A DNA stretch of 62,662 nt from an uncultured Elusimicrobia bacterium (GCA_964374095.1 CAYJXJ010000004.1:1-62662), one strand, 5' to 3'; positions 42,960 through 60,484 are shown, numbered from the stretch's first letter. Made by a program: numbers and translations. Notes: generated by a model not told the origin, from the sequence alone.

Positions 42960-42987
42960 CGGTACGCGCGTACAGTCGGAGAATGGG

Positions 42988-44817: not shown

Positions 44818-44820
44818 CGG

Positions 44821-45501
44821 CTAGCGCCCTCCCGCGGCCAGCGCGTGCTTATGGAGCACGATGGCGGTCCGGACCGCGCGGAAGCCGCAGGACTCGTAGA
44901 GCCTAAGTGAGGGAATGTTGGCGGCCTGGGTGCCCACCAGGAGTTCGTCGCACGATCCCCGGTAGGCGTTGACGAAGAACCGGACCAGGTCCCGGCCCAG
45001 GCCGCGGCCCTGATGGGCCTTGCCGACCCCGATCAAGTCGATGACCGCCTGGCGCCGCCCGCCCTCCGAAGCCCTCAGCACCGCCAGAAACCCGGCGGGC
45101 CGCCGCCCCCTCAAGACCGCGTGGAGCGCCGCGCCCCGGCGGCCCTCCACGTAGGAGCGGATCCACTCGCGCTTGATGCGGTGCGCCAAGGCGCCGGGAA
45201 CCTCGGGGTCGAGGTGGAACCGCGAAAACTTAAAGCACGAGCCCGCGATGTCAAGGACCGCCGCCGCCGTGCGCGCGGTCACGGCCTCCACCGGGGAGGT
45301 TGGCTCCGGAAGGGCGGGGGCGGCGGCGGCCCTGGAGAATGTCACGCTCACGTCCACGACGCGAAACCCCGCCGCTTCGAATCGTCCCACGGCCGCGGCG
45401 TGCTCGGGCGGGACCTTGGCGTAGGCGAAGGAGGGCGCCGGCAGCCCGCGCAGGCTGGCCGCGGGCGCGCCGGGCTCCACACACCGCACGGGCCGCCCCA
45501 T
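44821..45501 (-). CDS. GNAT N-acetyltransferase, WecD (dTDP-4-amino-4,6-dideoxyhexose acetyltransferase)-like
   Basis: Two-domain layout. FSRFHLDP..., acetyl-CoA motif HQGRGLGRDLV, VGTQAANIPSLRLYESCGF. ATG 45501 chosen (227 aa); the ORF-track start 45588 overlaps the upstream gene by 52 nt. Confidence 0.7.
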   Translation of the reverse strand: MGRPVRCVEPGAPAASLRGLPAPSFAYAKVPPEHAAAVGRFEAAGFRVVDVSVTFSRAAAAPALPEPTSPVEAVTARTAAAVLDIAGSCFKFSRFHLDPEVPGALAHRIKREWIRSYVEGRRGAALHAVLRGRRPAGFLAVLRASEGGRRQAVIDLIGVGKAHQGRGLGRDLVRFFVNAYRGSCDELLVGTQAANIPSLRLYESCGFRAVRTAIVLHKHALAAGGR

Positions 45502-45536
45502 GATCCCTTCCAGCCAAGGGTCCTCGCGGACCCCTT

Positions 45537-46583
45537 TCAAGGCCGGGTGGAAGCGGGTTCCGGAAGCTTGAAAAGCTCGCGGTACCATGCGATGTATTTG
45601 GGGAGGCCGACTTCGATGGGGTGGGCGGGGGAATAACCAAGCATGCGCCGGGCCTTCTCCACGCTGAGAGTCCCGCGGAAAGGCATGAGCTCGTCTCGGG
45701 CGCCGCTCTCGACGCCGATGCCGGGGAAATGCGCCTGCACGACCTCGGCCAGGTCCCGGATCGAGCGCGAACTCCCGTAAGTCAGGTTGAAGATCTGGTT
45801 GAGGGCCTCGGGATGCTGGATGCAGAGGGTGATCCCCTGCACCAGATCGTCGATGTAGGTGAAGTCCACCCGGTCCGAGCCGTCGCCGTCCATCTTGAGG
45901 CGCCCTCCCTTGAGGGCGGACTCAATGAAGACCTGGCTGACGCGGCGGCTGACGCACCGGGGACCGTAGAGCGCCGACGGCCGGATGATGGTGTAGGGCA
46001 GCTTGAAGACCTGCTGGTAGGCGATCACGATCTTTTCCCCGGCCACCTTGAGGGCCCCGTAGATGCCGATGGGATCCAGGGGATGGTCCTCGGTCACCTC
46101 GGGGATCTGGAAGTTCCCGTAGGCCATGCTCGAGGACAAGTAGATGAACTGGTCGATGCGGTCCCCCCGCGAGAAGTCCAGCGCGTTCTCCAAGGTCCGC
46201 AGGCTGTGGTCGAAGGTGTTGAAGGGGTCCTTGTTGGAGCGCCCGGCGTGAGACACCGCGGCCAGATGGACGATCACCCGGGGCCGGATTTGGGCGAGTA
46301 TGCGCGACAGGGCATGGTAGTCCCGGGCGTCGACCGGATGCAGGGGGATTCCCCCCGTCCGCAGGAGGTCGAGGCGCTGGTTGAGCATGCGCAAGTAGAG
46401 GTCCCGGTCCGTCCCGATCCCGTTGTCCGAGGCGAAGGAGAGGAGGTTGTTGACCTGCAGGCTGTCAACGATCTCGACCAAAGCCCCCTGCTTGGAAAGG
46501 GACAGGGCCAGGTTGTGGCCGATGAAGCCCCCGCCGCCGATGAGCGCGATCTTTCGTCCCCGCAGGTCCTGAAGCTGAGTCAT
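45537..46583 (-). CDS. SDR NAD-dependent sugar epimerase/dehydratase
   Basis: KIALIGGGGFIGHNL, YLSSSMAYG, YGALKVAGE (YxxxK). ATG 46583 overlaps the upstream stop (ATGA). Confidence 0.85.
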   Translation of the reverse strand: MTQLQDLRGRKIALIGGGGFIGHNLALSLSKQGALVEIVDSLQVNNLLSFASDNGIGTDRDLYLRMLNQRLDLLRTGGIPLHPVDARDYHALSRILAQIRPRVIVHLAAVSHAGRSNKDPFNTFDHSLRTLENALDFSRGDRIDQFIYLSSSMAYGNFQIPEVTEDHPLDPIGIYGALKVAGEKIVIAYQQVFKLPYTIIRPSALYGPRCVSRRVSQVFIESALKGGRLKMDGDGSDRVDFTYIDDLVQGITLCIQHPEALNQIFNLTYGSSRSIRDLAEVVQAHFPGIGVESGARDELMPFRGTLSVEKARRMLGYSPAHPIEVGLPKYIAWYRELFKLPEPASTRP

Positions 46584-47746
46584 GACGATGTCTCCGCGGC
46601 GGACGCACGCGCCGCCCGAGCGACCGCGCGCATATCCTCCGTCTCCAAATGCGTGCCGCAGGGAAGGGCCACGCCGCAATCGCTGATCCCGACGGCGGCC
46701 GGGAAAGCGCCCGCATCATAGCCGTACTTCAAGCGATAGTAGGACAGGCGCGGCACGGGTTGGGGGTAGTAGATGCTGGTGCCGACGCCGAGGGCGTTCA
46801 AGCGCGCGATGAAATCATTGCGGCGTGAGGCCAACGGGCCCTCCAGGACAATACAAAGACAATAGGGGCTATTCTCGTGGCCCGGCACGGCCGAATCCAA
46901 CACCCGGACGCTGGGAAAGTCGGCGAGCGCTTGTTTAAGCGTCAGGAAGTTCGCCCGCCGACGGCTTAAATTCTCCCCAATACGCGCCAACTGGGAACGG
47001 CCGAGCGCCGCCGACATCTCGCTCATGCGGTAATTGAGGCCCAGCGTGGGGACATCGTAGAAGCCCGGGACCGAGCGCTCCGCGTAGCTGCGGTCCACGC
47101 CGAAGGCCCGCAGGCGCGCCACGGCCTCGGCCACGGGTTTGTGCCGGGAGACGAACATGCCGCCTTCTCCGGTCGTGATGTGCTTGGCGGGATAGAACGA
47201 GAAGCACCCGGCGTCGCCCCAAAGGCCCACGTGGCGGCCGTCGATGCGGGCCCCCAGGGCGATGGCGCAATCTTCTATGACCCTCAGTCCACGCCGCTCG
47301 GCAACCTTCATGATTCGGGGCATGTCGCAGGGAAATCCCACGAAGTGGACGACGGCGATGGCCTTGGTTTTGGGGGTAACGGCTGTTTCAACGGTTTCGG
47401 CCGAAACGTTTCCAGTCGCGGGGTCGCAGTCGACGAAGACGGGACGGGCGCCGGCCCACTCAACGGCGTGGGCCGTCGCGGCGTGGGTCTGCGCCGGGAC
47501 GATCACCTCGTCGCCGGGGCCGATCCCGAAGTGCAGGGTGGCCGCGTGCAGGGCGCCCATGCAGGAGCTCATGGTCACGGAGTTGGCCCCCTCGCCGAGG
47601 AAGGCCGAAAACTCGGCTTCGAAGGCCTGGCACTCCGGTCCGTGCGTGAGGACGTGCCCCGAGAGCACGCGCTGCACCGCGGCGCGATCAGCGTCGGTGA
47701 TCCACGGCCGCGCGAAGGGGATGTCACGTGTCTTGGCGTCGGTCAT
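46580..47746 (-). CDS. DegT/DnrJ/EryC1/StrS-family sugar aminotransferase (third copy)
   Basis: IPFARPWITDAD, FSFYPAKHITTGEGG (PLP-lysine region). Confidence 0.9.
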   Translation of the reverse strand: MTDAKTRDIPFARPWITDADRAAVQRVLSGHVLTHGPECQAFEAEFSAFLGEGANSVTMSSCMGALHAATLHFGIGPGDEVIVPAQTHAATAHAVEWAGARPVFVDCDPATGNVSAETVETAVTPKTKAIAVVHFVGFPCDMPRIMKVAERRGLRVIEDCAIALGARIDGRHVGLWGDAGCFSFYPAKHITTGEGGMFVSRHKPVAEAVARLRAFGVDRSYAERSVPGFYDVPTLGLNYRMSEMSAALGRSQLARIGENLSRRRANFLTLKQALADFPSVRVLDSAVPGHENSPYCLCIVLEGPLASRRNDFIARLNALGVGTSIYYPQPVPRLSYYRLKYGYDAGAFPAAVGISDCGVALPCGTHLETEDMRAVARAARASAAETSS

Positions 47747-48753
47747 GGATACTCCACCGGAACCCAGGCGCCGCCCTCACGGGCGGCGTCGGCGGCCAAG
47801 CATACGGCGACCGCCTCGAATTCCCGACGCGCCTGCGGCTCGGGGTCCCGCCCCTCGAGTATTCCGCGGACGAAGTCCGGTATGAGGACCCCTTTGTCCG
47901 CGGGTTGGGCCGCAATGTTTAGCGTCTCGACGCGGGGAGAACCGTCGCGGCCCCAGTGCAGCCGCGCGTCGCGGTCATCGAGGATGAAGGAGCCTTTGGT
48001 CCCGAAGACCCGGACGACATGCTGGTGGGGGTGCACGCAGCCGAAGTTGGCCGTGACGCGCCCGACCAGACCGGACTTGAAGCGGAAGGTCGCCGCGGCG
48101 AAGTCGTCGTAGCGGAAGGCCGTTCCCCGGGTGGAAATGCGGCCTCCCGCGGCCATGACGGCCTCGGGCTTCTGACCGGAGAGCCCCAGCATCAAGTCCA
48201 CGAGGTGAATCCCGCCTCCCTGCATCACCGAGTAGTCCGTCACGTCTTTGCGCCAGCCCCCCACGATCTTCTCCAGCCGGCCGTAGAGGTAGTCGCCGTC
48301 GAACGCGTAAAGCTCGCCGAGCCGGCCCGAACTAATCGCCTCGTCGAGCCACCGGAACAGCGGCGCGCCCCGCAGCGCCAGGTTCGAAGCCAGGTGCCGC
48401 CCGCTCTTGCGCCGGGCCGCGTGCAGGGTCTTGAGTTCCAGGCGGCTGCGGCAGAGGGGCTTCTCAACGAAAACGTGCTTGCCCGCCTTCAGGGCGGCCA
48501 GGGCCTGTCCGAAGTGCGCGTCGTCATAGGAAGCGATCGAGACGATCGAGACCTCCGGGTCATCGAGGATGGCGTCAAAATCGCGGGCCGCGCGCGCCCC
48601 ATCGAGTGAGCCGGAGAGGCCCTTGGCCTTCTGGGGGGCGAGATCGTAAAGCCACAGCACCCGGCAGCCGCTCGCGGCGAAGGCCCGGGCGTGGGCCTCG
48701 CCCACGCCCAGCCCCGCGACGGCCACGCCCAAGGTGCGGCTCTTGGTCCTCAT
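47743..48753 (-). CDS. Gfo/Idh/MocA-family oxidoreductase (WbpB-like position next to the aminotransferase)
   Basis: LGVAVAGLGVGEAHA Rossmann motif, FVEKPL. ATG 48753 overlaps the upstream stop (ATGA). The ORF-track start 49143 is a run-on. Confidence 0.85.
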   Translation of the reverse strand: MRTKSRTLGVAVAGLGVGEAHARAFAASGCRVLWLYDLAPQKAKGLSGSLDGARAARDFDAILDDPEVSIVSIASYDDAHFGQALAALKAGKHVFVEKPLCRSRLELKTLHAARRKSGRHLASNLALRGAPLFRWLDEAISSGRLGELYAFDGDYLYGRLEKIVGGWRKDVTDYSVMQGGGIHLVDLMLGLSGQKPEAVMAAGGRISTRGTAFRYDDFAAATFRFKSGLVGRVTANFGCVHPHQHVVRVFGTKGSFILDDRDARLHWGRDGSPRVETLNIAAQPADKGVLIPDFVRGILEGRDPEPQARREFEAVAVCLAADAAREGGAWVPVEYP

Positions 48754-49439
48754 GGCCGCACCGGGGCCGGGGCCGGGAACCTCGGCAGTTTGGAATCGTC
48801 CGGATACTCCGCCTCCAGCCGCGCGAGATCTCCCGGCGCGGCAATGTCCAGGTGACGGCGCGCCAGGGCGGGATTCCCCGAAGCCACGTTGGCGATCCGG
48901 AAGCGCTTGGGGTTGTTGTAGTAGAACAAGGTCACGTGCTCGCGCTCCGAAGCCGTGAGGCTCTCGGAGGCGAGCGCGCGGAATGTCCCGGACTCCAGCA
49001 ATTCCGCGCTCTGGCCCTTGGGAAAAGTCCGCGGAAACACGTTGGTGACGATATCGACGTCCCGGCGGCCGGCGTAGCCGAGCATCGCCGTGACGACCCC
49101 GGGGTCGAGGAGGGGGCTGTCGGCGCAGATGCGCAGCAGCCACCCGCAGGGATGCGCCTTGAGACAGGCTTGGAACCGGGCGAAGACGTCGTCGCGCTCG
49201 CCCCGAAAAACCGCCAGCCCGAGCTCGGCGGCATAGGCGGCCAGGGGATCATCGGAGGCGTCCGAACTCGTGGCCAGGACGATGTCCCGGCGCGGGACGG
49301 CGCCGGCCACCCGGTCGACCATGTGCCAGAGCACGGGCCGGCCGCGGAAGGGCGCCAGGACCTTGCCCGGAAAGCGCTTGGAGCTCATGCGGGCCTGGAT
49401 GAAGGCGCGGATCGTCGGGGAGGACGGCTGTTTGTTCAA
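48750..49439 (-). CDS. cytidylyltransferase (SpsF/PseF-type, CTP_transf_3)
   Basis: IRAFIQARMSSKRFPGKVL N-terminal motif, ICADSPLLDP. Start taken as TTG 49439, because the first ATG would cut the conserved N-terminal motif. Confidence 0.75.
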   Translation of the reverse strand: MNKQPSSPTIRAFIQARMSSKRFPGKVLAPFRGRPVLWHMVDRVAGAVPRRDIVLATSSDASDDPLAAYAAELGLAVFRGERDDVFARFQACLKAHPCGWLLRICADSPLLDPGVVTAMLGYAGRRDVDIVTNVFPRTFPKGQSAELLESGTFRALASESLTASEREHVTLFYYNNPKRFRIANVASGNPALARRHLDIAAPGDLARLEAEYPDDSKLPRFPAPAPVRP

Positions 49440-49500
49440 AGTTTGAACATTATAGGAAGGCTGCCGCCGTAGCGTCAATCTGATCCGGCGCCCGGGCAGG

Positions 49501-50214
49501 TCACGGCGCGGTGGAAAGGCACGCCAGATTGGTGCGCAGCCCCGGCAGGCCCAGGCGCAAAAGGCGGTTGCGGCGTCCCGGCGGGAACAGCGCCAGAAAT
49601 TCCCCTGCGTAGAGGGGATTGAGGTTCTCCTCTCGGGAGAGGGAGTCGAAGCCCAGGCCGCGGATCGCGCGCCTCCAGGCCGGCGGCGGCAGCCAGTGCA
49701 GAAACGGCAGGAAAGTGTGCAGCTCGACCGGAAAGGCGCGGTTGGGCGTCGTGAACAGCACACCCCGGCAGACGCGGCACACCTCGCGGACCAGATCGGC
49801 CTGCTGGGCCCGCGTTCCCGCGTGCTCGACCACCGCGTTGCACAGCCCGAAATCGAAGTGGCGGTCCGGGAGGGGGATGTTCCTCAGGTCGCACTCGAGG
49901 AATGTCATCCCGGGGAAGGTCTGCGGATACCAGTCCGCTGCCTCCGCCGCACGGCCCAGAACCGTGAGACGCTCGCGGTGCGGGTAGCGGGCCTCAAAGA
50001 AGTAATGGACCGGATGGTCGCGGTGCCCGGTCACCCCGAAATCGGCGACGCGGGACTCGGGCCCCGGATGGAACTCAAGCATGAAGAGTTCGAAGACTCT
50101 CCGCCGCACGGCCAGGCCCAGGGCGTCGCGCGCCCGCGAGAGGATGCCGAGAGGCGCCGAATAATCAAGCGCCACCGACCCTCCCGCGGTACGGGGGCGC
50201 GTAGCGAAAAACAA
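49501..50214 (-). CDS. class I SAM-dependent methyltransferase-like protein
   Basis: VADFGVTG (degenerate motif I), FDFGLCNAVVEHA, TTPNRAFPVELHT. Start uncertain: TTG 50214, GTG 50175 or ATG 50082. Confidence 0.6.
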   Translation of the reverse strand: MFFATRPRTAGGSVALDYSAPLGILSRARDALGLAVRRRVFELFMLEFHPGPESRVADFGVTGHRDHPVHYFFEARYPHRERLTVLGRAAEAADWYPQTFPGMTFLECDLRNIPLPDRHFDFGLCNAVVEHAGTRAQQADLVREVCRVCRGVLFTTPNRAFPVELHTFLPFLHWLPPPAWRRAIRGLGFDSLSREENLNPLYAGEFLALFPPGRRNRLLRLGLPGLRTNLACLSTAP

Positions 50215-52204
50215 TGCGGCGCGCCGGGCGGTCCAGGAATACCCCCCAGAACACCCCGTAGGCCGGGACGATGCGGACCTCGCGGCCGTCCGCGCGGCAG
50301 GTCCAGTACGGGCTGTAGGAGTTCGTGACCACGAGCAGGCCCGGGCCCTTCATGGACGCCGCGAACTCGATGCGGTCGGGCTCGTAATTCTCCAGGCGGA
50401 CCTCGCCCTCAGCCAGGGCTGCGGCCCCGGCAATCCCCCCCTCCACCCAGACGGTGCGGCGCAGCTCGGCGACCGACGCCTCGGCGGCACGCTGGAGGGC
50501 CGCCTCCGGGCCGGGCGCCGGCTCCAGCCTCCGGGCGAAGTAGGCGCGCGGCAGCGCCGCCTGGTTCTCATAGAGGTAGAGATAGGTCTTGCCGGTGAAA
50601 TTCTCGCGCAGGCGCAGGCGCGCGCGCTCCCACCGGTCCATCTCCCGCCAGGGCCTCTGGACCAGGAGCGGCCGGAGGTCGGGATGGAGGAGCGGATGCC
50701 GGGAGACCAGGTAGCGCGTGTTGGCCAAGGAGAGCAGGTTCATCCGGTAGTAGCGTTCCAGGGGGACCCCGCCCGGGAAGGGGTCCACGGTCTCGAAGAA
50801 GAGATAGATCCGGCTCCCCCACCTATTGAAGTACTCGTCGTACTTGGGCTCCCGGCGGGTCAACGGCTCGATGACCTTGGACCAGAAGCGGTGGTATCGG
50901 AGCGGATAAACCTGAATGTAGCCGTCCACGGATTCCAGGCCGTAGACGTTGGCGTAAGCCGGATGGAGCCCGTGGGTGAAGGTGGCGACCCGGAACGTTC
51001 CCGGCGGGTGGCGGGCGGCCAAGTCCCTGAGGACGGGGCTGGCATAGTTGGCGTGATAACCTCCCTGGAAGAACCAATCCTCGGCGCTGGAGACCTTTTC
51101 GCGGAGCGTCCCCCAGGCCAACACCGCGGCCCAGAGCGCCGCGGCAACGCGCGGCCGCGGCAGGGCGTCCACGGCGCAGCCTCCGAGAAGCGCGGCAAAG
51201 AACGGCGCGGTCTTCTCCAGCCGAGTCACCTGCAGCCCGCGCAAGAAGCCGATGTGCGCGGATGCCGCGGCCCGCCCCGCGTCCAGGAGCCAGGCCCCGA
51301 CCAGGCAAAACAACAGCCCCGCCCACAACGCGCCCCGAGCCCGGCCTCGGAGGAGGCCCGGGAGGGCCAAGGCGAGGACCGGCCAGTAGTCCATGAGGGA
51401 CGCGAGCGACTTACCGAGCGCCTCCCACCCAACCGGGTTCGACGCCGGCCACATGGTCCGCTGCGACAAGGGCGCCTGGAGCATCTGGGCGAGCACGGTA
51501 GTACGGTGCGGCAGGATGGAGCCGGCGCAGAAGACGAGGAATACCGCCGCCGTCCGCCACGAGACCGCCCGGCGCGCCGCTGCGAGCCAGAAGGCGAGGG
51601 CGATGAGCTGGAAGGGCAGGGTCTGGGCCGCGGTCGACGCGACCGAGTTGCAAAGACCCAGGCCCAGGGCCAGGGCCAAGGCTCCCGTGCCGCGCCTGCG
51701 GCCGAGCTCCTCGAGGTACCAGGCATAGACCGGCAGGAGCAAGAAGGAGCCCTGATTGCCGGAGGCGCCGTCGGCCGTAACCGCGAAGGCGGCCCCGGCG
51801 AGCGCGGCGGCCAGCGGGGACAGCCCGAGCCTCTCCCGGGCGATTCGCATCACGAACAGGCAGCCGAGAAAGGCCTGGCCGAGACGCAGAGTCCCCAGCG
51901 CCAGCCAGGCCGGGAAGAGGAAATTCAGGATCGAGGTGAGGTGGCGCTCGGCGAGGCCCGTGCCGAGCCGGTCGATCCCGCAGGCGATATGGGGGAGCCA
52001 GTCGTGGCTGCGGGCCTGGTAGGCCGCCGACACCAGCAGGATGTCGCGGGGAGCCATGTGGTCTCCCGTGTCGTGGTTGCGGACGTGCGAGAACGGGCCC
52101 AGAGCCACCCATTCCAGCGAGAGCCAAAGGGCCACGGCCGCGCTGAACCGGGCGTCGCCGCCAAGCCGCCACCCCCGCCCGGGCCGGACGCCCGGCGCCG
52201 TCAT
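50165..52204 (-). CDS. YfhO-like GT-C membrane glycosyltransferase, paralogue 1
   Basis: About 12 hydrophobic segments, then a soluble C-terminal domain ending NSYSPYWTCRADGREVRIVPAYGVFWGVFLDRPARRIVFRYAPPY, the C-terminal pattern of YfhO-type proteins. Confidence 0.8.
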   Translation of the reverse strand: MTAPGVRPGRGWRLGGDARFSAAVALWLSLEWVALGPFSHVRNHDTGDHMAPRDILLVSAAYQARSHDWLPHIACGIDRLGTGLAERHLTSILNFLFPAWLALGTLRLGQAFLGCLFVMRIARERLGLSPLAAALAGAAFAVTADGASGNQGSFLLLPVYAWYLEELGRRRGTGALALALGLGLCNSVASTAAQTLPFQLIALAFWLAAARRAVSWRTAAVFLVFCAGSILPHRTTVLAQMLQAPLSQRTMWPASNPVGWEALGKSLASLMDYWPVLALALPGLLRGRARGALWAGLLFCLVGAWLLDAGRAAASAHIGFLRGLQVTRLEKTAPFFAALLGGCAVDALPRPRVAAALWAAVLAWGTLREKVSSAEDWFFQGGYHANYASPVLRDLAARHPPGTFRVATFTHGLHPAYANVYGLESVDGYIQVYPLRYHRFWSKVIEPLTRREPKYDEYFNRWGSRIYLFFETVDPFPGGVPLERYYRMNLLSLANTRYLVSRHPLLHPDLRPLLVQRPWREMDRWERARLRLRENFTGKTYLYLYENQAALPRAYFARRLEPAPGPEAALQRAAEASVAELRRTVWVEGGIAGAAALAEGEVRLENYEPDRIEFAASMKGPGLLVVTNSYSPYWTCRADGREVRIVPAYGVFWGVFLDRPARRIVFRYAPPYRGRVGGA

Positions 52205-52713
52205 TCCGGCAGGCCTAGGAACCGGCGGTGCCAGCGCACCAGGACGAGGGGCGCCCGCAAGCTCTCCCGCGCCAGGAGGTAGCGGGCGCCGTCGAAGGTC
52301 AGGTGCCCGGAGGCGACGAGTTTCTCAAGCCTCCTGTCCAGAATGAGGGAGGCGTTGTAGCGGTCCAGCACCTCGGCCACCGTGGCCGCCCCGCCGCGGT
52401 CCTCAACCTCGTAGAGCAGGCGCACGCGCAACGCCGCCTCGCCCATGCCGAAGATCCAGGTGCCGTAGTTGAACACGAGCAGGCCGTAGAGGAGGCAGGC
52501 CGCGGCGATCAGGAGCCAGGCGTCCCGGGGATCGGCCGGCCGGACGGCCGGGCGCGCGGAACAAATGACGCAGACCGCCAGGCCCAGCAGAATCGACGCC
52601 GCCAGCGACGCCGTCATGTGGCGGGCGCGGTCCAGTCTAAAGAAGGCCACGTGCAGGGCCAGGAACACGGCGAAGGCGGAGAAGACCGCTCTTAGGAGGC
52701 CGGCGTCCCACAC
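52201..52713 (-). CDS. 170-aa membrane protein: three hydrophobic helices + wHTH-like tail
   Basis: GTG 52713. The stop overlaps the YfhO-like start (ATGA). Paralogue of the 52718-53212 product. Confidence 0.65.
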   Translation of the reverse strand: MWDAGLLRAVFSAFAVFLALHVAFFRLDRARHMTASLAASILLGLAVCVICSARPAVRPADPRDAWLLIAAACLLYGLLVFNYGTWIFGMGEAALRVRLLYEVEDRGGAATVAEVLDRYNASLILDRRLEKLVASGHLTFDGARYLLARESLRAPLVLVRWHRRFLGLPE

Positions 52714-52717
52714 GTCT

Positions 52718-53212
52718 TTAGCCGCCCACTCCCAGGCCGAGCACAGCCCGGTAGGCGAGTATGCCGCGAACCACCAGGCGGCCCCGGGGAGTGATCACCA
52801 GGCGCTCCCCGTCGCGCCGCAGGTGGCCTCCATCGACGAGCTCCTGGATTCGGGGCAGGAGAAACTCCGCGTCGGAGAACGCGGCGGCCAGCTCCGCGCT
52901 CGCGGCCCGCCGGTCAGGACGGTCGAGCAGGAGCCTCACGATGATCAAAGACGGGCTCTGGTAACGGAGCACATTGCAGGTGGAGACGTACCAGAGCGCG
53001 AGCATGAGGTAGAGCAGGCCCGCGGTGACGGGCAAGGAGACCTCATGGCGCCCGCCCGGGCGGGCCAGCCAGACGGCCAGCGGAGCCAGCCACAGCAGGC
53101 CCAGGCCGATCACGGGCTTGAGCTCCACGCCGCGCGGACCCCGGCGCATCCAGGCCGCGTGGGAGAGGGCCATGGCGGCGAAGGCGGCCAGGGCCGCGCC
53201 CAGCTCACTCAT
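52718..53212 (-). CDS. 164-aa membrane protein: three hydrophobic helices + wHTH-like tail
   Basis: ATG 53212 overlaps the GT2 stop (ATGA). The ORF-track start 53449 is a run-on inside the GT2 gene. Confidence 0.65.
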   Translation of the reverse strand: MSELGAALAAFAAMALSHAAWMRRGPRGVELKPVIGLGLLWLAPLAVWLARPGGRHEVSLPVTAGLLYLMLALWYVSTCNVLRYQSPSLIIVRLLLDRPDRRAASAELAAAFSDAEFLLPRIQELVDGGHLRRDGERLVITPRGRLVVRGILAYRAVLGLGVGG

Positions 53213-53961
53213 CGCCGCGGGGGAGGGAGTTCCGGCGTCATGCGGAAGGCGATCTTCTCCAGCCTCCTCAGGAGGATGTGGAAGAGGGTGTTGGCGACCG
53301 CCAGGAGGTTGCCCACGACCAGGGCCTTGGAGACCCCCTGGGTGCGCTCGCCGTTGTGGATGGGAACTTCGATCACCCGGATCCCCTCGTCGAGCAGGCG
53401 GCAGAGGAGCTCGGCCTGGTAGCCGAAGCCCCGGGTCTCCGCGAACCACATGCGCACGTTCTCGGTGCGGTGCAGGACCGGACCGTTGTAGTAGCGCAGC
53501 CGGTGGCCGCTGAATATGTTGACCATGAGGGTGAACAGGCGCGAGAGTAGCCGGCGCCCTCGGCTCCGGGAGTCCGTGGCCGCGTACGGGACGACGGCGT
53601 CTGCCTCGCCGAGGCGCGACACGATCGCCGCGATCGACTCCGCGGGCTCGACCGCGTCGCCGTTGACCAGCATGAAGTGCTCGCCCCTGGCGCGATGAGA
53701 CGCGATGAAGTAGTTCCGCCCCAGCCCGCGGCGGAAGGGGTTTCGGACCACGGACACCGGCACATCGCGATACCGCGCCGCGCGGCCCTCCACCTCGGCC
53801 ACGGAGCCGTCGGTGGAACCGTCATCCACCACCAGAATCTCATAGCGGCGGCCGCGGCCGGCCATCACGGAAACGACCGTGTCGATGGCCCGCCCCACGT
53901 TCCCCTCCTCGTTGAGGCAGGGGATGAAGAAGGTGATCGAGACCGCGCTCAACTCTGCCAT
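53209..53961 (-). CDS. GT2 glycosyltransferase, DPM1/GtrB-like catalytic domain without clear TM anchor
   Basis: FFIPCLNEE, VVDDGSTDGS, VNGDAVEP motifs. 250 aa. Only a weakly hydrophobic C-terminal helix. Confidence 0.85.
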   Translation of the reverse strand: MAELSAVSITFFIPCLNEEGNVGRAIDTVVSVMAGRGRRYEILVVDDGSTDGSVAEVEGRAARYRDVPVSVVRNPFRRGLGRNYFIASHRARGEHFMLVNGDAVEPAESIAAIVSRLGEADAVVPYAATDSRSRGRRLLSRLFTLMVNIFSGHRLRYYNGPVLHRTENVRMWFAETRGFGYQAELLCRLLDEGIRVIEVPIHNGERTQGVSKALVVGNLLAVANTLFHILLRRLEKIAFRMTPELPPPRR

Positions 53962-54000
53962 GGGATGCGGCGGAGATTATAGTATCGTGACCGACCCCGC

Positions 54001-54043
54001 CGCTACCAGCGCCAGGCCGCGCTGAAGGCGTGCCGGTCGCCGA
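54001..54043. repeat. left arm of a perfect 43-bp inverted repeat
   Basis: Exact reverse complement of 58369-58411. On the minus strand it encodes ..GDRHAFSAAWRW-stop. Confidence 0.9.
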
Positions 54044-54116
54044 GGTTCACGGAGGGGACGAAAAGGAAGGTCATTGTCCGGCTTCATCCAGCAAAGACAG
54101 GAGCGCCTGGATGGTC

Positions 54117-54467
54117 TCAAAGACGTCGCGGCAGCGAACGGCCCGCGGCGTTTTTGACCCGGCGGACGTAGCTGTGGGCAATGGGATTGCCCTTTGCGTC
54201 AATGCGATGCCTGAACCCTCGCTTCTCCAGAATTTTCTCGATGCGGGCGTACGCCTCGTCCGAGATGCCGGCGGCGTTCAAGGCAAGGTCTACATCCAAC
54301 GATCCGACATGCGGCTCATCCTTCGCGACGCCTTGCGTCAATAGAAATGGCACCCAGCCGCCGATGACGACAATGTCTTCGCGATAGGGGCCCAGGTAGG
54401 TCAACAGCTCGGCCAGGACCGAGAGAGCCGCCTGGGTTTCGTCCGTGGGGTATTCGCTCTTGTTCAT
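54117..54467 (-). CDS. nucleotidyltransferase-fold protein (AbiEii/MNT-like), short or truncated
   Basis: IVVIGGWVPFLL...GSLDVDLAL NTase motif. ATG 54467 overlaps the upstream stop (ATGA). Only 116 aa. Confidence 0.6.
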   Translation of the reverse strand: MNKSEYPTDETQAALSVLAELLTYLGPYREDIVVIGGWVPFLLTQGVAKDEPHVGSLDVDLALNAAGISDEAYARIEKILEKRGFRHRIDAKGNPIAHSYVRRVKNAAGRSLPRRL

Positions 54468-56041
54468 GAGGCCAGCCACTCGTGGACTTCTTCGGCTTTG
54501 AGTTTGATCTCATTGAAGCTTTCCGTGTAGGGGCTTGTCACGATTCCGAAAAGATCCTGGAACCGCTTGTTGGCCTCGTATCTTTGAGCCCGGTCCTCGG
54601 ACCACTTGGCCTCCAAGGCCGCCTTGAGCATTAAACCGTACTTAATCCAACCGTTATTGAACCACGTCCGCGTCCGCAGCTCCTCGACATCATGATCTAC
54701 CGGGAAGATGGAAATTGCTCCTTGAAGAAGGGTGCGATTCTGAGCGCGGAAAGCCGCTTCGAGCCTGGCCAGCCATAACTTGATGCGCAAGAAGTCCAGC
54801 TCCCGGTCCCTGTCCGCCGGGGACAAGGCGCCCGTCATTTCCATGGCCCTCCCTAGGGCATCCGCCGCAGCGGCCGCGTCATTGGATCGAAACAGGCGGG
54901 CGTCACCCTGATCGCGCAGGCGCAGGAACTCGTGGAGCTTCGCCTCCTGCTCGATGGTTCGCTCCCCCTGGACGGGCTGGATATTCTCTCGCAGGATGGG
55001 CTGGAGGCAGCGCTCCGCCAGCGCCTCCGCCTGCTCCTCGCCGCGGCCATGTGCGTTCTTCAAATCCACGTATAGTTGTACGTCCGAGACGATGTTCCGA
55101 TTCTGAACCCGCTGCCGCCTGAAGAAAACACCTTCGTCTTGGGCTGGAAAGATCAAGCAGTTCCCCCCGGAGGGAACTGCTTTAAGGTCAAGTTCCGAAG
55201 CGATGGATTCGAGCCCTCCCCGAACATACGCATGGAGCCTATTGGCCCGGACGAACGGCGCCCGGTATCGGGCGCCGGCGAATAGGGTCAAGGCGTACTG
55301 GAATCCTTTCTTGACGCTCAGCTCATCAAGACGCTGCTCGAACTGTTGCAACGGCTCGGAAGTATAGTACTCGGCGTGAGGCTTATCTCGCAAAGTTTCA
55401 GCCTTGACCCATTCAGCAAGGAGGGCCTGCCGATCCTTCAAGTAGCTGCGCCCAGCAATGAGCGTGACATAGGCGCCCCCCTGGAGACGCCGGACCACCC
55501 GGTTGACCAGGCCCAGGCTGGTCCCCGTTTCCTTGCTGAGCGCGAGCTGCCGCCAATCTTTGAGGGGCTGGCACAGCAGAGCGCGCACGATGCGCAATGA
55601 TTTGGGCGCGAACAAGCGCCGGCTTTCGCGGCGCGGCGCCGGGGGCTTGCCTTCCACTGACTTGGAAATCAGGATGGTCCGATAGCTGATCCAGCAGTTA
55701 CCGATCTCATCGAAGCAGCCGATGCCCGCTTGGCGACACAGTTGGGAGGCGCGCTGGCTTATGTAGGGGGCGAATAGGAGCGGGTAGACCTTCTTTTCCT
55801 CATCCCCCAACAGCTGAAGCTGTCCGATCAGTTCATAGACCCGGCGAGGTTCGGCGTTGGGCTTGGCATAGAGCCCAAGCTCCAACGGCAGTCCCTTGAG
55901 TTCGGTGCGGTAGATGATACTCCAGGTAGGGGCCTTCCCCCGCCCCGAAGCGGTACGGCGGCCGGTAGCGGAACGAGACCGTCCGGGCGGGCCTGTCCAG
56001 AGACACCCCCCAGCCGGACCGCTCATCATGACCGAGGGCAT
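54464..56041 (-). CDS. wHTH-containing hypothetical protein coupled to the NTase gene (AbiEi-like partner?)
   Basis: Central wHTH-like LALSKETGTSLGLVNRVVRRLQGG and VQLYVDLKNAHGRGEEQAEAL. Start set at ATG 56041 (56029/56026 are alternatives), because upstream codons of the ORF-track frame read through unrelated gene fragments. Confidence 0.5.
   Translation of the reverse strand: MPSVMMSGPAGGCLWTGPPGRSRSATGRRTASGRGKAPTWSIIYRTELKGLPLELGLYAKPNAEPRRVYELIGQLQLLGDEEKKVYPLLFAPYISQRASQLCRQAGIGCFDEIGNCWISYRTILISKSVEGKPPAPRRESRRLFAPKSLRIVRALLCQPLKDWRQLALSKETGTSLGLVNRVVRRLQGGAYVTLIAGRSYLKDRQALLAEWVKAETLRDKPHAEYYTSEPLQQFEQRLDELSVKKGFQYALTLFAGARYRAPFVRANRLHAYVRGGLESIASELDLKAVPSGGNCLIFPAQDEGVFFRRQRVQNRNIVSDVQLYVDLKNAHGRGEEQAEALAERCLQPILRENIQPVQGERTIEQEAKLHEFLRLRDQGDARLFRSNDAAAAADALGRAMEMTGALSPADRDRELDFLRIKLWLARLEAAFRAQNRTLLQGAISIFPVDHDVEELRTRTWFNNGWIKYGLMLKAALEAKWSEDRAQRYEANKRFQDLFGIVTSPYTESFNEIKLKAEEVHEWLAS
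55944..56013 (-). pseudogene. 3'-terminal fragment of a further YfhO-like gene
   Basis: 70 nt with 4 mismatches to 58438-58507. Encodes WGVSLDRPARTVSFRYRPPY. Confidence 0.6.
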
Positions 56042-56436
56042 GTGGCCGTCCCGTTTCTCGATGGCGAGCTTCTGGGTCTCGACCCGGCGGAGCTGGATGA
56101 GCTGGGGCGTGATGGCTTCCTTCTGCATGCGCAGGCCCTCGGCCTTGATCTTGATACGTTCCAGGTCGCGCTTGGCCTTCAGGGCATGCTGCTCGGCGAT
56201 CTGCCATTCAGCCCTTTGGGGTGATCGACCAGGGGCCTGCAGCGGCGGATTGCGGGAACAAAAGGGGTGGCCAGATCGTACCTGCGAGAGGGAGTACGCC
56301 TTGCTCGCAGGTATGAAGCATGCGTGCCTCTCTCGACCGCAGGTCCCCCCACGCGTCTCTACGCGCTCCGGCGCGCCTGGACCCGGCCCCCGCACCGCGA
56401 CCTGCGCTGAAGATTCTCTCCGGTCTTTCCTTTCTT

Positions 56437-56565
56437 GAGTGCGGCATTCCACGTTTCGGTGTCGTGCGATGCCTCTGCCGCCAGCGCGGCAACGATCTCT
56501 TCGTGCCCTACAACTGCAAGCGGCGCCTGGCATGTCCGAGTTGTGATTCAAAGCGCGCGGTAGTT
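56437..56565 (+). mobile_element. fragment of an IS91-family (Y2 transposase) zinc-binding domain
   Basis: ..RCLCRQRGNDLFVPYNCKRRLACPSCDSKRAV matches the C..C...SCK.R.CPSC..KR pattern. No transposase body follows. Confidence 0.4.
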
Positions 56566-56736
56566 GAGATTGAAGGAGCGGCTTTTAAGTCTGGCCGTGA
56601 AAGTTTAAATATACTTCCTATTGACAATCCAGAATTGTCGAGTTAAGCTATATTTAAACCGAATGGATTGGATGGTTTATATAAGACACTATTTGACAAT
56701 CCTCGATTTATATCTAGAGCTATAAATAAACCAGCT

Positions 56737-57534
56737 ATGGCCGACTCCACTCAGCACCAAGGTAAGCTTTCTGAACTCCTCGGCAAATGGCCGAAGGGAG
56801 CGGTTGTCGTTCAAGGTTGGCTCGACAAGCAAGGCATATCTCGCCAGCTTGCGGACCGCTATTGCCGCTTCCATTGGATGCGCCGCATAGGACGCGGGGC
56901 CTATACGCGGCTCAAGGAAAGCGTGGAGTGGATGGGCGGACTCTACGCGATGCAGCAGCAGCTCGGCCTTCCGATTCACGCTGGAGCCAAGACGGCGCTT
57001 GAGCTTCAGGGCTATGCCCACTACATACCCATGCGCAAAGGCGGGACACAGTGGCTGTTCGGCCCTCCGAAGGTGAAGCCGCCGGCGTGGTTCTTGAAGC
57101 ACGATTGGGAAGATCGGCTGCGCTATGTGGCGACCAATCTCTTCCAGACGAGCCCGGAACTGGGTCTGACCAAGAAGCGGATAGAGGACTACTCGATAAG
57201 GCTCTCGGCTCCCGAGCGCGCGATGCTGGAGTTGCTTGACCAACTGCCGAAGAGCCAATCCTTCGAGGAGGCCCGACAGCTGATGGAAGGCCTCGCCACC
57301 CTGCGGCCCGAGCTCGTGCAGCAGCTTCTGGAGAACTGCCGCTCGATAAAGGCTAAGCGGCTCTTTTTGCTTCTCGCCGAGATATGCGGACATCGGTGGC
57401 TTTCCGGGGTAAACTTGAAGAGCGTGGACCTCGGCAAAGGGAAACGCCTCATGGTCAAGGGCGGGCACTTCGATCAAAAGTTTCAGATAAGCACCCCATA
57501 CGAGCGGCCCGACAAGGAACAGATACCGGCATGA
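56737..57534 (+). CDS. AbiEi-family type IV toxin-antitoxin antitoxin / transcriptional regulator
   Basis: LLGKWPKGAVVVQGWLDKQGISRQLADRYCRFHWMRRIGRGAYT N-terminal wHTH pattern. ERAMLELL. The stop overlaps the toxin start (ATGA). Confidence 0.8.
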   Translation: MADSTQHQGKLSELLGKWPKGAVVVQGWLDKQGISRQLADRYCRFHWMRRIGRGAYTRLKESVEWMGGLYAMQQQLGLPIHAGAKTALELQGYAHYIPMRKGGTQWLFGPPKVKPPAWFLKHDWEDRLRYVATNLFQTSPELGLTKKRIEDYSIRLSAPERAMLELLDQLPKSQSFEEARQLMEGLATLRPELVQQLLENCRSIKAKRLFLLLAEICGHRWLSGVNLKSVDLGKGKRLMVKGGHFDQKFQISTPYERPDKEQIPA

Positions 57535-58409
57535 ACCCGGCCTATGTCGAGCAGACGCGGCTCATGCTCCGCGTCTTGCCATTCGTGGCCAAAGAGGATT
57601 GTTTCGCGCTGAAGGGCGGCACGGCGATCAACTTCTTCGTGCGCGACCTGCCGAGACTCTCCGTGGATATCGACCTGGTTTATTTGCCGATCAACTCCAG
57701 GCAAGAAGCTCTCTCGGGGATCAGCGCGGCGCTCAAGAGGATCAAGGCGGACGCGCTCCGCGGCCTGGGGCAAGGGTTCACCATCCAAGAGGGCGTCGCC
57801 GGAGGCATGACCTCCAAGCTGTTCGTCAAAGGGCCGGGTGGAACGGTGAAAGTCGAGCCGAACTTCGTCCTTCGTGGGACGGTGAGCGCTCCGGCAAAGC
57901 GCGCCGCATCGAAGAAGGTCGTCGCGACATTCGACCTGTCCGTCTCCATCATGACGGCCGCCAACACCGACCTGTACGGCGGCAAGATATGCGCCGCATT
58001 AGATCGACAACACCCGCGCGATCTCTTCGACATCGAGCCGCTCATCTGGCGGCAAGTCCTCGTGCCGAGTTCCATCACCTTCGCCAAGCTCATCCGGGAG
58101 GAGATCGGCGGAGCCGAGGCCGCTACCGGGGCGGTGGACGCGGGAGTGATGGCCGACCTCGGTGAGCCGCTGGGAGCGCCGGTCACCCTCGGCGCCGGCC
58201 TCCAGAACCTGGGAGGCAGGCTGCGGTACCAGTCCTCCAGCGAGGAACTGCCCCTGGCCTGGCGGCTGGGAGCGGCCTGGAAACCCTTCGACGGCGCCGC
58301 CCTGGCCGCGGACATAAGCCGGTTCAATAGAGACGAGCTCCCGGCGCACGCCGGTCTCGAATACGTCTTCGGCGACCGGCACGCCTTCAGCGCGGCCTGG
58401 CGCTGGTAG
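57531..58409 (+). CDS. AbiEii/AbiGii-family nucleotidyltransferase toxin, C-terminally replaced by an OMP-like beta-barrel fragment (chimeric, possibly inactive)
   Basis: FALKGGTAINFF...LSVDIDLVY...GGKICAALDRQHPRDLFDI NTase signature up to ~58040. From ~58140 the sequence reads LGAGLQNLGG..LPLAWRLGAAW..GLEYVFGDRHAFSAAWRW, with a terminal aromatic residue. Confidence 0.7.
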   Translation: MNPAYVEQTRLMLRVLPFVAKEDCFALKGGTAINFFVRDLPRLSVDIDLVYLPINSRQEALSGISAALKRIKADALRGLGQGFTIQEGVAGGMTSKLFVKGPGGTVKVEPNFVLRGTVSAPAKRAASKKVVATFDLSVSIMTAANTDLYGGKICAALDRQHPRDLFDIEPLIWRQVLVPSSITFAKLIREEIGGAEAATGAVDAGVMADLGEPLGAPVTLGAGLQNLGGRLRYQSSSEELPLAWRLGAAWKPFDGAALAADISRFNRDELPAHAGLEYVFGDRHAFSAAWRW

Positions 58410-58411: not shown

Positions 58412-60484
58412 TCAGGGGCCCTCCGGGCCTTGACTCGACCCGAGGCGGTACGGCGGCCGGTAGCGGAAGGCGACCGTCCGCGCGGGCCTGTCCAGAGACA
58501 CCCCCCAGAAGGTCCCGTAGGCGGGCACGATCTCGACCTCCCGCCCGTCCGCCCAGCACCGCCAGAACGGGCTGTAGCTGTTGCTCACGACCAGAAACCC
58601 CGGACCCTCCATGCGCGTCGCCAGGTCCAGGCGGTCCGGCTCGTAGCGGGTGAACTCGGCCGCGCCCGCGGCCAAGCTCCGGCCGACGCCGCCGGAGGAC
58701 GCCTTCTCGAGATAGGCCGCCTCCCGCAGCGCCCCCGGACCGGCCCCGGCCATGGCCTCCAGCAGGCTCCCGCGGTCTGCGAAGACCTGGATCGCTCGAA
58801 CGAAGTACGCGCGGGGCAGGACCGTCTTGTTCTCGTACAGGTAGAAGTAGGTCTTGCCGGTGAAATTCTCACGGACCCGGAGCCGGACCCGCTCCCACCG
58901 CGTCATGGACTCCCAGGGCCGCTGGCCCAGGATCTCGAGTGCGTCCGGATGGATGAGGGGATGGCGCGAGATCAAGTACCGCACGTTGGCCAAGGACAGC
59001 AGGTTCATCCGGGCGAAGGCGTCGATGGGGACGCCCCCCGGCAGGGAGCGGACGTCCCCGGGCCAGAAGAGATAGAGACGGTTCCCAATCGGGACGAAGG
59101 CCTCGGATCGTTGTTCCGGATCCAGCCGGGCCTGGGACCGGGCGTTATAATCGATGACCCTGTCCCAAAAGCGTTCATAGGCGGCTGGAAACAGATTCAG
59201 GATGCCGTCGGCCGCTTCGAGCCCATGGGCCATGGCGTAGGCCGGAACTAAGCCGTGCGTGAAGCTGGCCACCCGGAAGGGCGGCAGCGGCGTTCGCGCG
59301 GCCAGCTCCTTGAGGACGGGGCTCGAGTAGTTGGCGCGAAAGCCCCCTTGGAAGAACCAGTCCCGCAGGTTGTCGGCCTTGCGGACGAGGGATTGCCCCA
59401 GGAGGAGGAGCGCCCACAAGGCCAGGACCAGCCCTCGCCGCGGGAGCTGGTCGAGGCCCGAGGCCGTCAGCAGAAGCGCGAAGAGGATGCCCATGAAGGA
59501 CAGCCGCTGGAGGATCATGAAGCCGCCCACCCCCGGAACAGCCCCGGACAGGGCGATCCGCGCCCCTTCCAAGGCCGCTCCTCCCAGGGCGCACACGAGG
59601 AGCGCCCACAAGAGCTCCCACCGGACGCGGCCGTAGCGAGCGCCCAGCGCCGCGAACACGAGCGGGAGCCCGACGACGCGGTGCGGGAAAAAGACCCATG
59701 AGAGATGCTCGGCGAGGGACCGGCTCAGCGGCGGGGTCCCATGGCTCGTCCGGTTGGACCAACTCGCGTGCAGCGCCATGGCCCACGCCGTCTGCAGGTG
59801 CGGGAGCAGCGACACGGCCGCGAAAGCGGCGAACACCCAGGCCATCTTCCACGTCCAAAGACCGCGGACCGCGGCCAGCCACAGCGCCGCGCCGAGAAGT
59901 CCGAAAGGCAATGACATCGCCACGGAGGAGGTCATGGCGTTAACCAGCCCCAAACCCGCGGCCCAGACCAGGGGCTGGGACCGGCGCCCGCGGGCGATCT
60001 CCTCGAGCTGCCACGCCATGAACGGCAGCAAGAGCCAGCCGCCCCGGAAGCCGGGATCATTTGGAACGGACAGGCAGAAAGCGGCCCCCGCGGCCAGGGA
60101 GCACCAGGGCGAAAGCCGGAGCCGCTCGCGCGCCAGGAGATAGGCGTAGTAGGCGCCCAGGAAGTACTGGAGCAGGTGGAACACGGCGTAGGCGGCCCAG
60201 ATCGGGAGCGCCAGGCCGAGCAGGGAGGTGCTGTGGAGGTGCGAGATGTCATTGGCCAGGCGATCCACGCCGCAGGCCATGTGGGGGAGCCAGTGATGGG
60301 AGCTTGCCCGGTAGCCCGCGGAGGCCAGGAGGATGTCCCGAGGGACGGTGTGGTCCGCGGTGTCGTAGTGCCTGATCATCGAGGCGGGGCCCAGGAGGAG
60401 CCCCTCGAGGCTCAGCCACAGGGCGATGGCGCCGCAGAGGCGCAGGGCACGGGGGTCGCCGTTGGAGAGCCGGAGGACACTCAT
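58412..60484 (-). CDS. YfhO-like GT-C membrane glycosyltransferase, paralogue 2
   Basis: Same architecture as 50165-52204. The C-terminal ~200 codons are identical to paralogue 3. Confidence 0.85.
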   Translation of the reverse strand: MSVLRLSNGDPRALRLCGAIALWLSLEGLLLGPASMIRHYDTADHTVPRDILLASAGYRASSHHWLPHMACGVDRLANDISHLHSTSLLGLALPIWAAYAVFHLLQYFLGAYYAYLLARERLRLSPWCSLAAGAAFCLSVPNDPGFRGGWLLLPFMAWQLEEIARGRRSQPLVWAAGLGLVNAMTSSVAMSLPFGLLGAALWLAAVRGLWTWKMAWVFAAFAAVSLLPHLQTAWAMALHASWSNRTSHGTPPLSRSLAEHLSWVFFPHRVVGLPLVFAALGARYGRVRWELLWALLVCALGGAALEGARIALSGAVPGVGGFMILQRLSFMGILFALLLTASGLDQLPRRGLVLALWALLLLGQSLVRKADNLRDWFFQGGFRANYSSPVLKELAARTPLPPFRVASFTHGLVPAYAMAHGLEAADGILNLFPAAYERFWDRVIDYNARSQARLDPEQRSEAFVPIGNRLYLFWPGDVRSLPGGVPIDAFARMNLLSLANVRYLISRHPLIHPDALEILGQRPWESMTRWERVRLRVRENFTGKTYFYLYENKTVLPRAYFVRAIQVFADRGSLLEAMAGAGPGALREAAYLEKASSGGVGRSLAAGAAEFTRYEPDRLDLATRMEGPGFLVVSNSYSPFWRCWADGREVEIVPAYGTFWGVSLDRPARTVAFRYRPPYRLGSSQGPEGP
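58452..59056. repeat. 605-bp perfect direct repeat, copy 1
   Basis: Compared line by line with 60532-61136; no mismatch seen. Offset exactly 2080 bp. Confidence 0.9.

Follow-up and report, generated by a model that had tools for sequence, protein, structure and literature searches.

How does a synthase of polyprenyl-phosphate sugars meet its lipid acceptor when its gene ends just before the membrane-spanning part of the enzyme? This question is raised by a four-gene operon in a stretch of 62,662 nucleotides from an uncultured Elusimicrobia bacterium (GCA_964374095.1, CAYJXJ010000004.1:1-62662), the whole of which is called the window below. On its minus strand, the gene of a family 2 glycosyltransferase (GT2) devoid of the usual transmembrane (TM) hairpin is followed by the genes of two small membrane proteins, named here S1 and S2, and of a large polytopic protein of the DUF6044 family with a predicted glycosyltransferase C (GT-C) fold. 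Both the contact of polyprenyl-phosphate sugar synthases with their lipid acceptor and the passage of their products across the membrane are still poorly understood. We put a probability of roughly 55% on the reading that S1 and S2 form a heterodimer which serves a split polyprenyl-phosphate sugar synthase as its membrane subunit, comparable to GacJ and Rv3632 in bacteria or to DPM2 and DPM3 in eukaryotes. Four arguments lead to this reading: the exact point at which the GT2 is truncated, a linkage of the three genes that is both tight and conserved, the predicted cytoplasmic orientation of the S tails, and the existence of strong experimental precedents. The gene structure of the locus, the family membership of the GT2 and of the GT-C protein, the homology of S1 and S2, their predicted topology and the conserved synteny are documented in turn.

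The four open reading frames (ORFs) of the minus strand, and the way in which they are joined, correspond to what had been described in a first-pass annotation of the window. The GT2 gene (53961-53209, 250 aa) is followed by S1 (53212-52718, 164 aa), S2 (52713-52201, 170 aa) and the DUF6044 gene (52204-50165, 679 aa), and identical boundaries were obtained from independent gene calls on two public contigs that encode identical proteins. Reading of the sequence shows that the stop codon of the GT2 gene and the start codon of S1 share one ATGA, that the TAA stop of S1 is separated by the four nucleotides AGAC from the GTG start of S2, and that the stop of S2 and the start of the DUF6044 gene share another ATGA. 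The 3′ end of the DUF6044 gene in turn overlaps a methyltransferase gene by 11 nucleotides, and below it the same-strand run extends through sugar-nucleotide genes to about 39.9 kb. Upstream of the operon, a perfect TATAAT hexamer is found on the minus strand at 53976-53981, 14 nucleotides 5′ of the GT2 ATG. No minus-strand promoter was returned at this site by a consensus promoter scan, and no Shine-Dalgarno-like sequence is present between the hexamer and the ATG.

The GT2 belongs to PF00535 (Pfam, E=5e-21), and its nearest NCBIfam model is ArnC, after which come mostly enzymes of the polyprenyl-phosphate kind, among them PgfS, AglJ, a dolichyl-phosphate hexose transferase and PpgS. Among proteins of solved structure, the best sequence matches were to ArnC (3e-9), the DPMS of P. 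furiosus (1e-7) and GtrB (6e-4), and these alignments reach as far as a HxxERxxGxSK motif. The three sets of matches thus give the locus a GT2 of the polyprenyl-phosphate-synthase type, as found in multi-component glycosylation systems. The window GT2 was then aligned with ten members of its clade and with two canonical, TM-bearing GT2s, one encoded in the window at 7622-8593 and the other taken from locus L010. In the clade members, the catalytic domain and the HxxERxxGxSK motif are followed by one further helix, after which the proteins end, while in the two canonical enzymes a pair of TM helices comes next, with the motif usual at the C-terminus. Residues 213-231 form the sole hydrophobic stretch of the window GT2 (Kyte-Doolittle value of 1.94). 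Because this stretch lines up with plainly amphipathic, non-hydrophobic helices of the clade members, it is unlikely to be a true TM anchor and would rather be an interface helix. Apart from the single amphipathic stretch of the window copy, the number of predicted TM segments is zero in all clade GT2s tabulated beside S pairs (12/12). On this alignment, the operon GT2 is predicted to be an enzyme of the polyprenyl-phosphate kind, cut off exactly before the TM hairpin of the GtrB/ArnC-type enzymes. These data sustain the initial description of the GT2 as a bare catalytic domain with at most one weakly hydrophobic C-terminal helix, and they reveal no membrane anchor of its own. The product of the gene at 7622-8593, which had been presented as its TM-bearing paralogue, does possess two C-terminal TM segments; since it shares only 29% identity with the operon GT2 (over 155 aa), the two are paralogues solely in the wide sense of belonging to one large family.

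What could replace the missing hairpin? The two small proteins encoded directly downstream of the GT2 are related to each other. BLASTP detected 29% identity between S1 and S2 (E=2e-5), and the comparison of the two subfamily profiles with hhalign gave a probability of 99.9% (E=7.6e-31), far beyond chance. The proposal that they are paralogues is therefore well supported, and on these comparisons S1 and S2 can be regarded as two homologous subfamilies of one protein family. Neither Pfam nor NCBIfam contains a family for S1 or S2, so that no known family of unrelated role could be assigned to them; the only matches were weak ones of the tails to winged-helix models. For S1 the sole Pfam match, likewise weak and located on the tail, was to HemN_C, and weak matches to the winged-helix families HemN_C, HTH_45 and EutK_C recur among the members of the family. 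An exhaustive HMMER search with the S1/S2 alignment retrieved 569 cluster representatives at E≤1e-3, 61 of them at E≤1e-10; almost without exception their length is 160-190 aa and the match spans the whole protein. A word-indexed homologue search with S2 alone returned only S2 itself, and the same type of search with a profile of 142 sequences returned only 15 proteins, all unnamed or called "hypothetical". No match to S2 was found by tblastn in the PLSDB plasmids.

Each subfamily carries its own set of conserved residues. In the S2 subfamily alignment, F17, H21, G89, E92, A94, R96, Y119 and R128 are invariant, and the sequence FGMGEAAIRIRLL stands directly behind the third TM helix (TM3). S1-type proteins have a SPS motif in the position that FGMGEAAIRIRLL occupies in S2; their other conserved features are H18, R23, Y75, R121, L125 and a nearly invariant terminal Gly-Gly, mostly as LGG (alignment A6; window 52718-52726). 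The shared tail motifs originally quoted for S1 and S2 are both present as written.

The AlphaFold2 (AF2) model of S2, with a predicted local distance difference test (pLDDT) score of 88.5, consists of helices at residues 2-28, 33-53 and 62-105, a wing at 138-147 and a last helix at 150-166. Three TM helices are thus predicted, the third of which (TM3) passes without any linker into the first helix of the winged-helix domain; this domain is a helix-turn-helix whose wing is a beta-hairpin, and a last helix closes the C-terminus. The secondary structure of S2 fits a winged-helix fold, for which the Pfam matches are weak and the Foldseek matches non-significant; in the comparison of the S2 model with the PDB, the best E-value was about 2, and no solved structure was similar to the protein as a whole. 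Counting of charged residues in both subfamilies showed about three Lys+Arg in loop 1, and less than one in the N-terminus and in loop 2. This excess of basic residues in loop 1 would place the winged helix in the cytoplasm, and the predicted topology of the S proteins has the N-terminus outside, with loop 1 and the winged-helix tail cytoplasmic. The S domains that are fused at their C-terminus to GtrA or to an NAD-dependent epimerase (see below) agree with this orientation of the tail. Model and positive-inside counts together argue that these small proteins cross the membrane three times and have their C-terminus in the cytoplasm, in line with the three-helix topology first proposed, and the tails would lie on the side of the GT2. 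The winged helix of the S1 type bears a net negative charge, and both types end in a strongly basic helix. The conserved polar residues, namely the His and Arg of TM1, the Tyr of TM3 and the motifs that follow TM3, are all predicted at the cytoplasmic membrane interface. The motif that follows TM3 is GMGE-x3-R-x-R in S2 and SPS in S1.

The association of the S pair with a TM-less GT2 was examined in loci taken from collections of genomes and metagenomes or located by exact matches of proteins, which were scored with hidden Markov models (HMMs) of S1 and S2 and with the window proteins. Fifteen loci were tabulated, at least 12 of them distinct, with a few near-duplicates; the sample is small, the S2-profile scans of genomes and of metagenomes having yielded only five loci each. 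In all 15, the gene right behind an S1-type gene encodes another member of the family, which is of the S2 type in 14; at the other locus (L027) both copies score as S1-type. A clade GT2 gene occurs near the S pair at 14 of the 15 loci: directly upstream in ten (the window included), divergent and adjacent in two, and within a few genes in two. For what remains of the table, either the contig is too short to tell or no GT2 was seen. These clade GT2s share 25-43% identity with the window GT2, and the gene coupling is equally tight in L011 and L021. The trio was found in Omnitrophota, in Lindowbacteria and in unclassified metagenome-assembled genomes (MAGs). Conservation of the small pair beside a TM-less GT2, on which the first-pass annotation depended, is thus observed across Omnitrophota, Lindowbacteria and other uncultured lineages.

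The polytopic protein encoded beside the trio varies. It is DUF6044 in the window, PMT_2 in L011 and L021, YfhO in L019, an unannotated protein of 13-15 TM segments in L016 and L017, and other polytopic proteins in L013, L014 and L025. Given this variable neighbour, GT2, S1 and S2 appear to behave as a constant donor-making module combined with changing GT-C-like partners, just as gtrA and gtrB are combined with a variable gtr(type) gene. Two natural fusions were found. In L019, a single protein joins an S2-type domain with a GtrA/DPMS TM domain, and its gene lies beside an S1-type gene and a YfhO gene. In the other (P0166), an S2-type domain is fused to an NAD-dependent epimerase/dehydratase, beside an S1-type gene and with a clade GT2 gene nearby. 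A different arrangement is seen in L008 (5746-9617), where a protein with a LPG_synthase_TM domain (PF03706) is encoded between a TM-less GT2 of 244 aa and DUF6044, and in protein P0013, a DUF6044 relative fused to a LPG_synthase_TM domain. The last two cases suggest that accessory membrane modules are interchangeable at the slot between GT2 and DUF6044. The flanks of L013, L015-L018 and L025/L026 recurrently carry genes for B12-binding radical S-adenosylmethionine (SAM) enzymes, SPASM radical SAM enzymes and split transketolase or E1 halves, together with HldE-like and SIS genes and C-methyltransferases. These flanking genes point to unusual, heavily modified sugars as the cargo of the trio loci.

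The last protein of the operon matches PF19510 (DUF6044) at E=2e-23 (83 bits). Its resemblance to YfhO (PF09586) is restricted to residues 596-672, with an E-value of 0.0024 and a score of 16.7 bits for a cut-off of 28.5; some of its DUF6044 relatives match both models. The AF2 model (pLDDT 78.8, predicted template modelling score 0.83) was compared with the PDB by Foldseek, and the top matches were AftD (5e-6), AftA, PglB, ArnT and Emb proteins, with a probability of 1.00 for the first six. A GT-C fold is supported by these structural matches, which are to enzymes with lipid-linked donors, and the protein is predicted to be a periplasmic transferase for which the lipid-linked sugar would be the donor. 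A polytopic GT-C glycosyltransferase, as in multi-component glycosylation systems, is thereby indicated beside the synthase-type GT2. Of the earlier designation "YfhO-like GT-C", the GT-C part stands; the protein is a DUF6044 member and not YfhO proper, its YfhO match being below threshold and confined to the C-terminus. Its nearest relatives occur in Elusimicrobiota MAGs. A scan of the genome collection with the single operon GT-C sequence confirmed nothing, and a literature search for "DUF6044" returned no paper. Two paralogues of 690 aa (58412-60484, minus strand; PF19510 E=7e-9) and 687 aa (60501-62564, minus strand; E=4e-17) are encoded in the window, and they are respectively 48% and 47% identical to the operon copy. 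The first of these may draw on the same lipid-linked donor as well, and a single donor-making module may feed all three DUF6044 transferases.

A synthase split in this manner has precedents. In S. pyogenes, GacJ is a DUF2304 protein of 113 aa with three TM helices, whose gene lies just downstream of that of the TM-less GT2 GacI (bioRxiv 10.1101/180810). The two proteins form a stable complex, in which the Km for undecaprenyl phosphate decreases from 18.7 to 1.1 μM and the Vmax rises from 54 pmol to 18.5 nmol/min/mg, approximately 340-fold; natural GacI-GacJ fusions exist (10.1101/180810). Rv3632 likewise stimulates PpgS in M. tuberculosis (10.1101/180810; PMC8035078), and a review of 2021 counts the TM-less GT2 with a small membrane activator among the standard variants of such multi-component glycosylation systems (PMC8035078). 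With GacI/GacJ and PpgS/Rv3632 already known, the statement that a bacterial equivalent would be undescribed does not hold: the concept of the split synthase is known in bacteria, and it is the S1/S2 protein family that is new. The window resembles both systems in that a TM-less GT2 is directly followed by a small three-TM protein with a cytoplasmic C-terminal tail and in that the system ends in a GT-C enzyme. The topology of Rv3632, with three TM helices, a basic loop 1 and a C-terminal helix (PMC6487176), matches that predicted for the S proteins. Furthermore, the GacJ-type placement beside a TM-less polyprenyl-phosphate GT2 applies to 14 of the 15 S loci. However, the GacJ and Rv3632 systems have one small protein where the window has two paralogous ones, and S1/S2 proteins measure 160-185 aa against about 113 aa for GacJ, the additional length corresponding to the winged-helix domain.

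In eukaryotes, DPM1 is a catalytic GT2 without TM helices that depends on small membrane subunits. These are DPM2 and DPM3, which are unrelated to each other, measure about 85-90 aa and have two TM helices each; DPM3 tethers DPM1 by a coiled coil. A TM-less GT2 with two small membrane subunits is common to both arrangements, but S1 and S2 are paralogous, and each combines three TM helices with a winged helix. Among 29 S2-type and 36 S1-type members, none matched the Pfam models of DPM2 and DPM3 at E≤1. Another likeness is with ArnE and ArnF, small paralogous proteins of the inner membrane whose operon also encodes an ArnC-type GT2 and the GT-C enzyme ArnT. Both have four TM helices, belong with the EmrE-like small drug transporters and lack a soluble domain. 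S1 and S2, in contrast, have three TM helices and a winged helix, and no Pfam match to such families. For ArnE, similarity to EmrE has been reported, yet the protein was called a MATE-family transporter (PMC11127046). The three-component systems gtrA-gtrB-gtr(type) and CsbB-GtcA-YfhO also combine a polyprenyl-phosphate GT2, a variable GT-C and a gene for a small membrane protein (PMC8035078, PMC11127046). Their canonical GT2 carries its own two TM helices, like the window enzyme encoded at 7622-8593 and unlike the operon GT2; their small protein is of the four-TM GtrA family, whereas S1 and S2 have three TM helices; and their GT-C is for instance YfhO, whereas that of the window is a DUF6044 protein with a weakly YfhO-like C-terminus.

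We propose the following model for the split synthase. The 250-aa GT2 would provide the catalytic half, located in the cytoplasm, of a GtrB/ArnC/DPMS-like synthase of polyprenyl-phosphate sugars. S1 and S2 most likely would associate into a heterodimer of six TM helices, with the N-termini outside and with the winged-helix domains and basic C-terminal helices at the cytoplasmic face. This heterodimer would supply in trans what full-length enzymes carry in cis, holding the GT2 on the membrane and helping to present the polyprenyl-phosphate acceptor. The conserved features that would line the inner interface are the His-x4-Arg and the Tyr at the inner ends of TM1 and TM3 respectively, the GMGE-x3-R-x-R of S2 and the SPS of S1. 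The mode of action would be that of GacJ and Rv3632 towards GacI and PpgS, or of DPM2 and DPM3 towards DPM1. The lipid-linked sugar might then be flipped by an unlinked flippase or by the S1/S2 pair itself, and the DUF6044 GT-C protein, perhaps together with its two nearby paralogues, would transfer the sugar to an acceptor outside the cytoplasm. We infer the heterodimer, its contact with the GT2, the activation of the GT2, and the identities of the sugar and of the acceptor.

Several observations weigh against this model. The S family has no detectable homology to DUF2304/GacJ: hmmscan gave no match to PF10066 at E≤1 in the same 65 members, and hhalign of the S-family profile with residues 21-114 of Rv3632 gave a probability of 0.2%, a comparison that relies on a single partial query and has low sensitivity. 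This Rv3632 fragment was rebuilt from peptide sequences in PMC6487176 and, as a positive control, matches PF10066 at 3.6e-23. GacI is active and membrane-bound without GacJ, so that "anchor" may be too strong a word for the contribution of the S proteins. TM-less GT2s are also encoded beside DUF6044 without any S pair in L003, L005 and L007. Because of these three loci, a TM-less GT2 is not strictly dependent on S proteins, and the rule that a TM-less GT2 always implies an S pair was rejected. Finally, no flippase is encoded in the window and a LPG_synthase_TM protein fills the S slot in L008, which makes a transport role conceivable.

Could S1 and S2 be the flippase? As a heterodimeric flippase of the polyprenyl-phosphate sugar, they would take the role of GtrA or of ArnE/ArnF, with or without docking of the GT2. 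Two paralogous small membrane proteins encoded between a synthase and a GT-C enzyme do recall ArnE/ArnF, and the L008 slot between the TM-less GT2 and DUF6044 is occupied by LPG_synthase_TM, a domain of the MprF flippase type. As the first-pass annotation had noted for GtrA, the 62-kb window contains no GtrA, Wzx, SMR or MATE candidate according to a screen for hydropathy that covered ORFs from 90 aa upwards, in which only large polytopic proteins otherwise have three or more TM segments, and to tblastn with a GtrA domain. No such candidate was found within 7 kb of the trio in L016-L018 either. This absence is weak evidence, however, because in such systems the flippase gene is often unlinked and its product serves several pathways (PMC8035078). 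The S proteins have three TM helices and not four, they give no Pfam match to GtrA (PF04138), EamA or SMR, and hhalign with the GtrA domain of P0085 gave a probability of 4%. Their conserved polar residues lie at the cytoplasmic interface, with none in the middle of the membrane. In addition, the fusion of an S2-type domain to a GtrA domain would be redundant if S2 were itself a flippase; since GtrA is presumed to be the flippase or DPMS membrane domain, this fusion argues that S does something besides flipping. A flippase is hence a rather unlikely identity for the pair. We are equally reserved about a combined device, in which S1/S2 would be both the obligatory membrane half of the synthase and the machine that flips the lipid-linked sugar, replacing the TM domain of GtrB as well as GtrA.

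The fusion to an NAD-dependent sugar epimerase/dehydratase raises another question, namely whether the S pair is a general membrane scaffold for several cytoplasmic enzymes of the sugar pathway and not specifically for the GT2. The trio clusters are rich in radical SAM enzymes, transketolase halves, aminotransferases and methyltransferases, and winged-helix domains often mediate protein-protein contacts. But the GT2 is the immediate and near-constant neighbour while the other enzymes vary from locus to locus, and the epimerase fusion is the only one among the 150 representatives inspected; a general scaffold thus seems improbable to us. The winged helix could also suggest membrane-tethered transcription regulators or sensors of the glycan operon, considering the ArsR/MarR-like helix-turn-helix with its wing, the Pfam hints to winged-helix families, and the best, non-significant Foldseek matches to regulators of the MntR, ArsR, IclR and MarR types. 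Such a function is difficult to reconcile with S genes that lie between enzyme genes, are translationally coupled to them and always form an ordered pair. The linker-free transition from TM3 would press the domain against the membrane, the winged helix of the S1 type is net negative, and the C-terminal fusion partners are a GtrA domain and an epimerase. A regulatory role is unlikely, and it is the least probable of the readings considered.

How GacJ activates GacI was an open question at the time of the report (10.1101/180810). S1/S2 bring a second, unrelated and strongly conserved family into the GacJ position, as an ordered pair with a folded cytoplasmic domain. If the split-synthase model is true, they offer a separate way to find out what a membrane half brings to the enzyme once it is detached, and a likely role is gained for the family of 569 cluster representatives now labelled "hypothetical protein". 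The glycan gene clusters of Omnitrophota, of Elusimicrobiota-like bacteria and of other uncultured lineages could then be better read. If instead the pair combines docking with flipping, this would be a module used in several candidate phyla.

The genes that adjoin the operon downstream form a run of sugar-nucleotide modification genes on the minus strand (39857-50175, from Pfam assignments and gene calls). It encodes a methyltransferase, a CTP_transf_3 cytidylyltransferase, a GFO/IDH/MocA oxidoreductase, a DegT aminotransferase, an NAD epimerase/dehydratase, a GNAT protein, an AsnB-like amidotransferase, an unknown protein of 392 aa and two methyltransferases. Judged only by gene order, this run probably supplies the modified sugar donor. 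Within it, the set at 39857-49388 (CTP_transf_3, GFO/IDH/MocA, DegT, GNAT and AsnB-like) recalls pathways of diamino- or amidated sugars. A NeuB-type synthase was not found among the annotated ORFs of the window, although the loci of relatives carry NeuB.

On the other side, between the operon and the two other DUF6044 genes, lies a low-GC island (54000-58100; 0.46-0.64 versus about 0.70 in the flanks). It contains the genes of a type IV toxin-antitoxin system on the plus strand, AbiEi (56668-57534) and AbiEii (57384-58409), and on the minus strand an ORF of 695 aa without any Pfam match (54464-56551). It seems that the island was inserted into what had been an array of DUF6044 genes. At 55950-56012 on the minus strand, 21 residues are 76% identical to the extreme C-terminus of the operon DUF6044 protein; this is probably the remnant of a fourth DUF6044 gene disrupted by the island. 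At the opposite end of the window (7622-10121, plus strand), the canonical GT2 with two TM segments is followed by an overlapping gene for a polytopic protein of 538 aa, which has only a weak PTPS_related match; this pair looks like a conventional, unsplit synthase with its membrane transferase.

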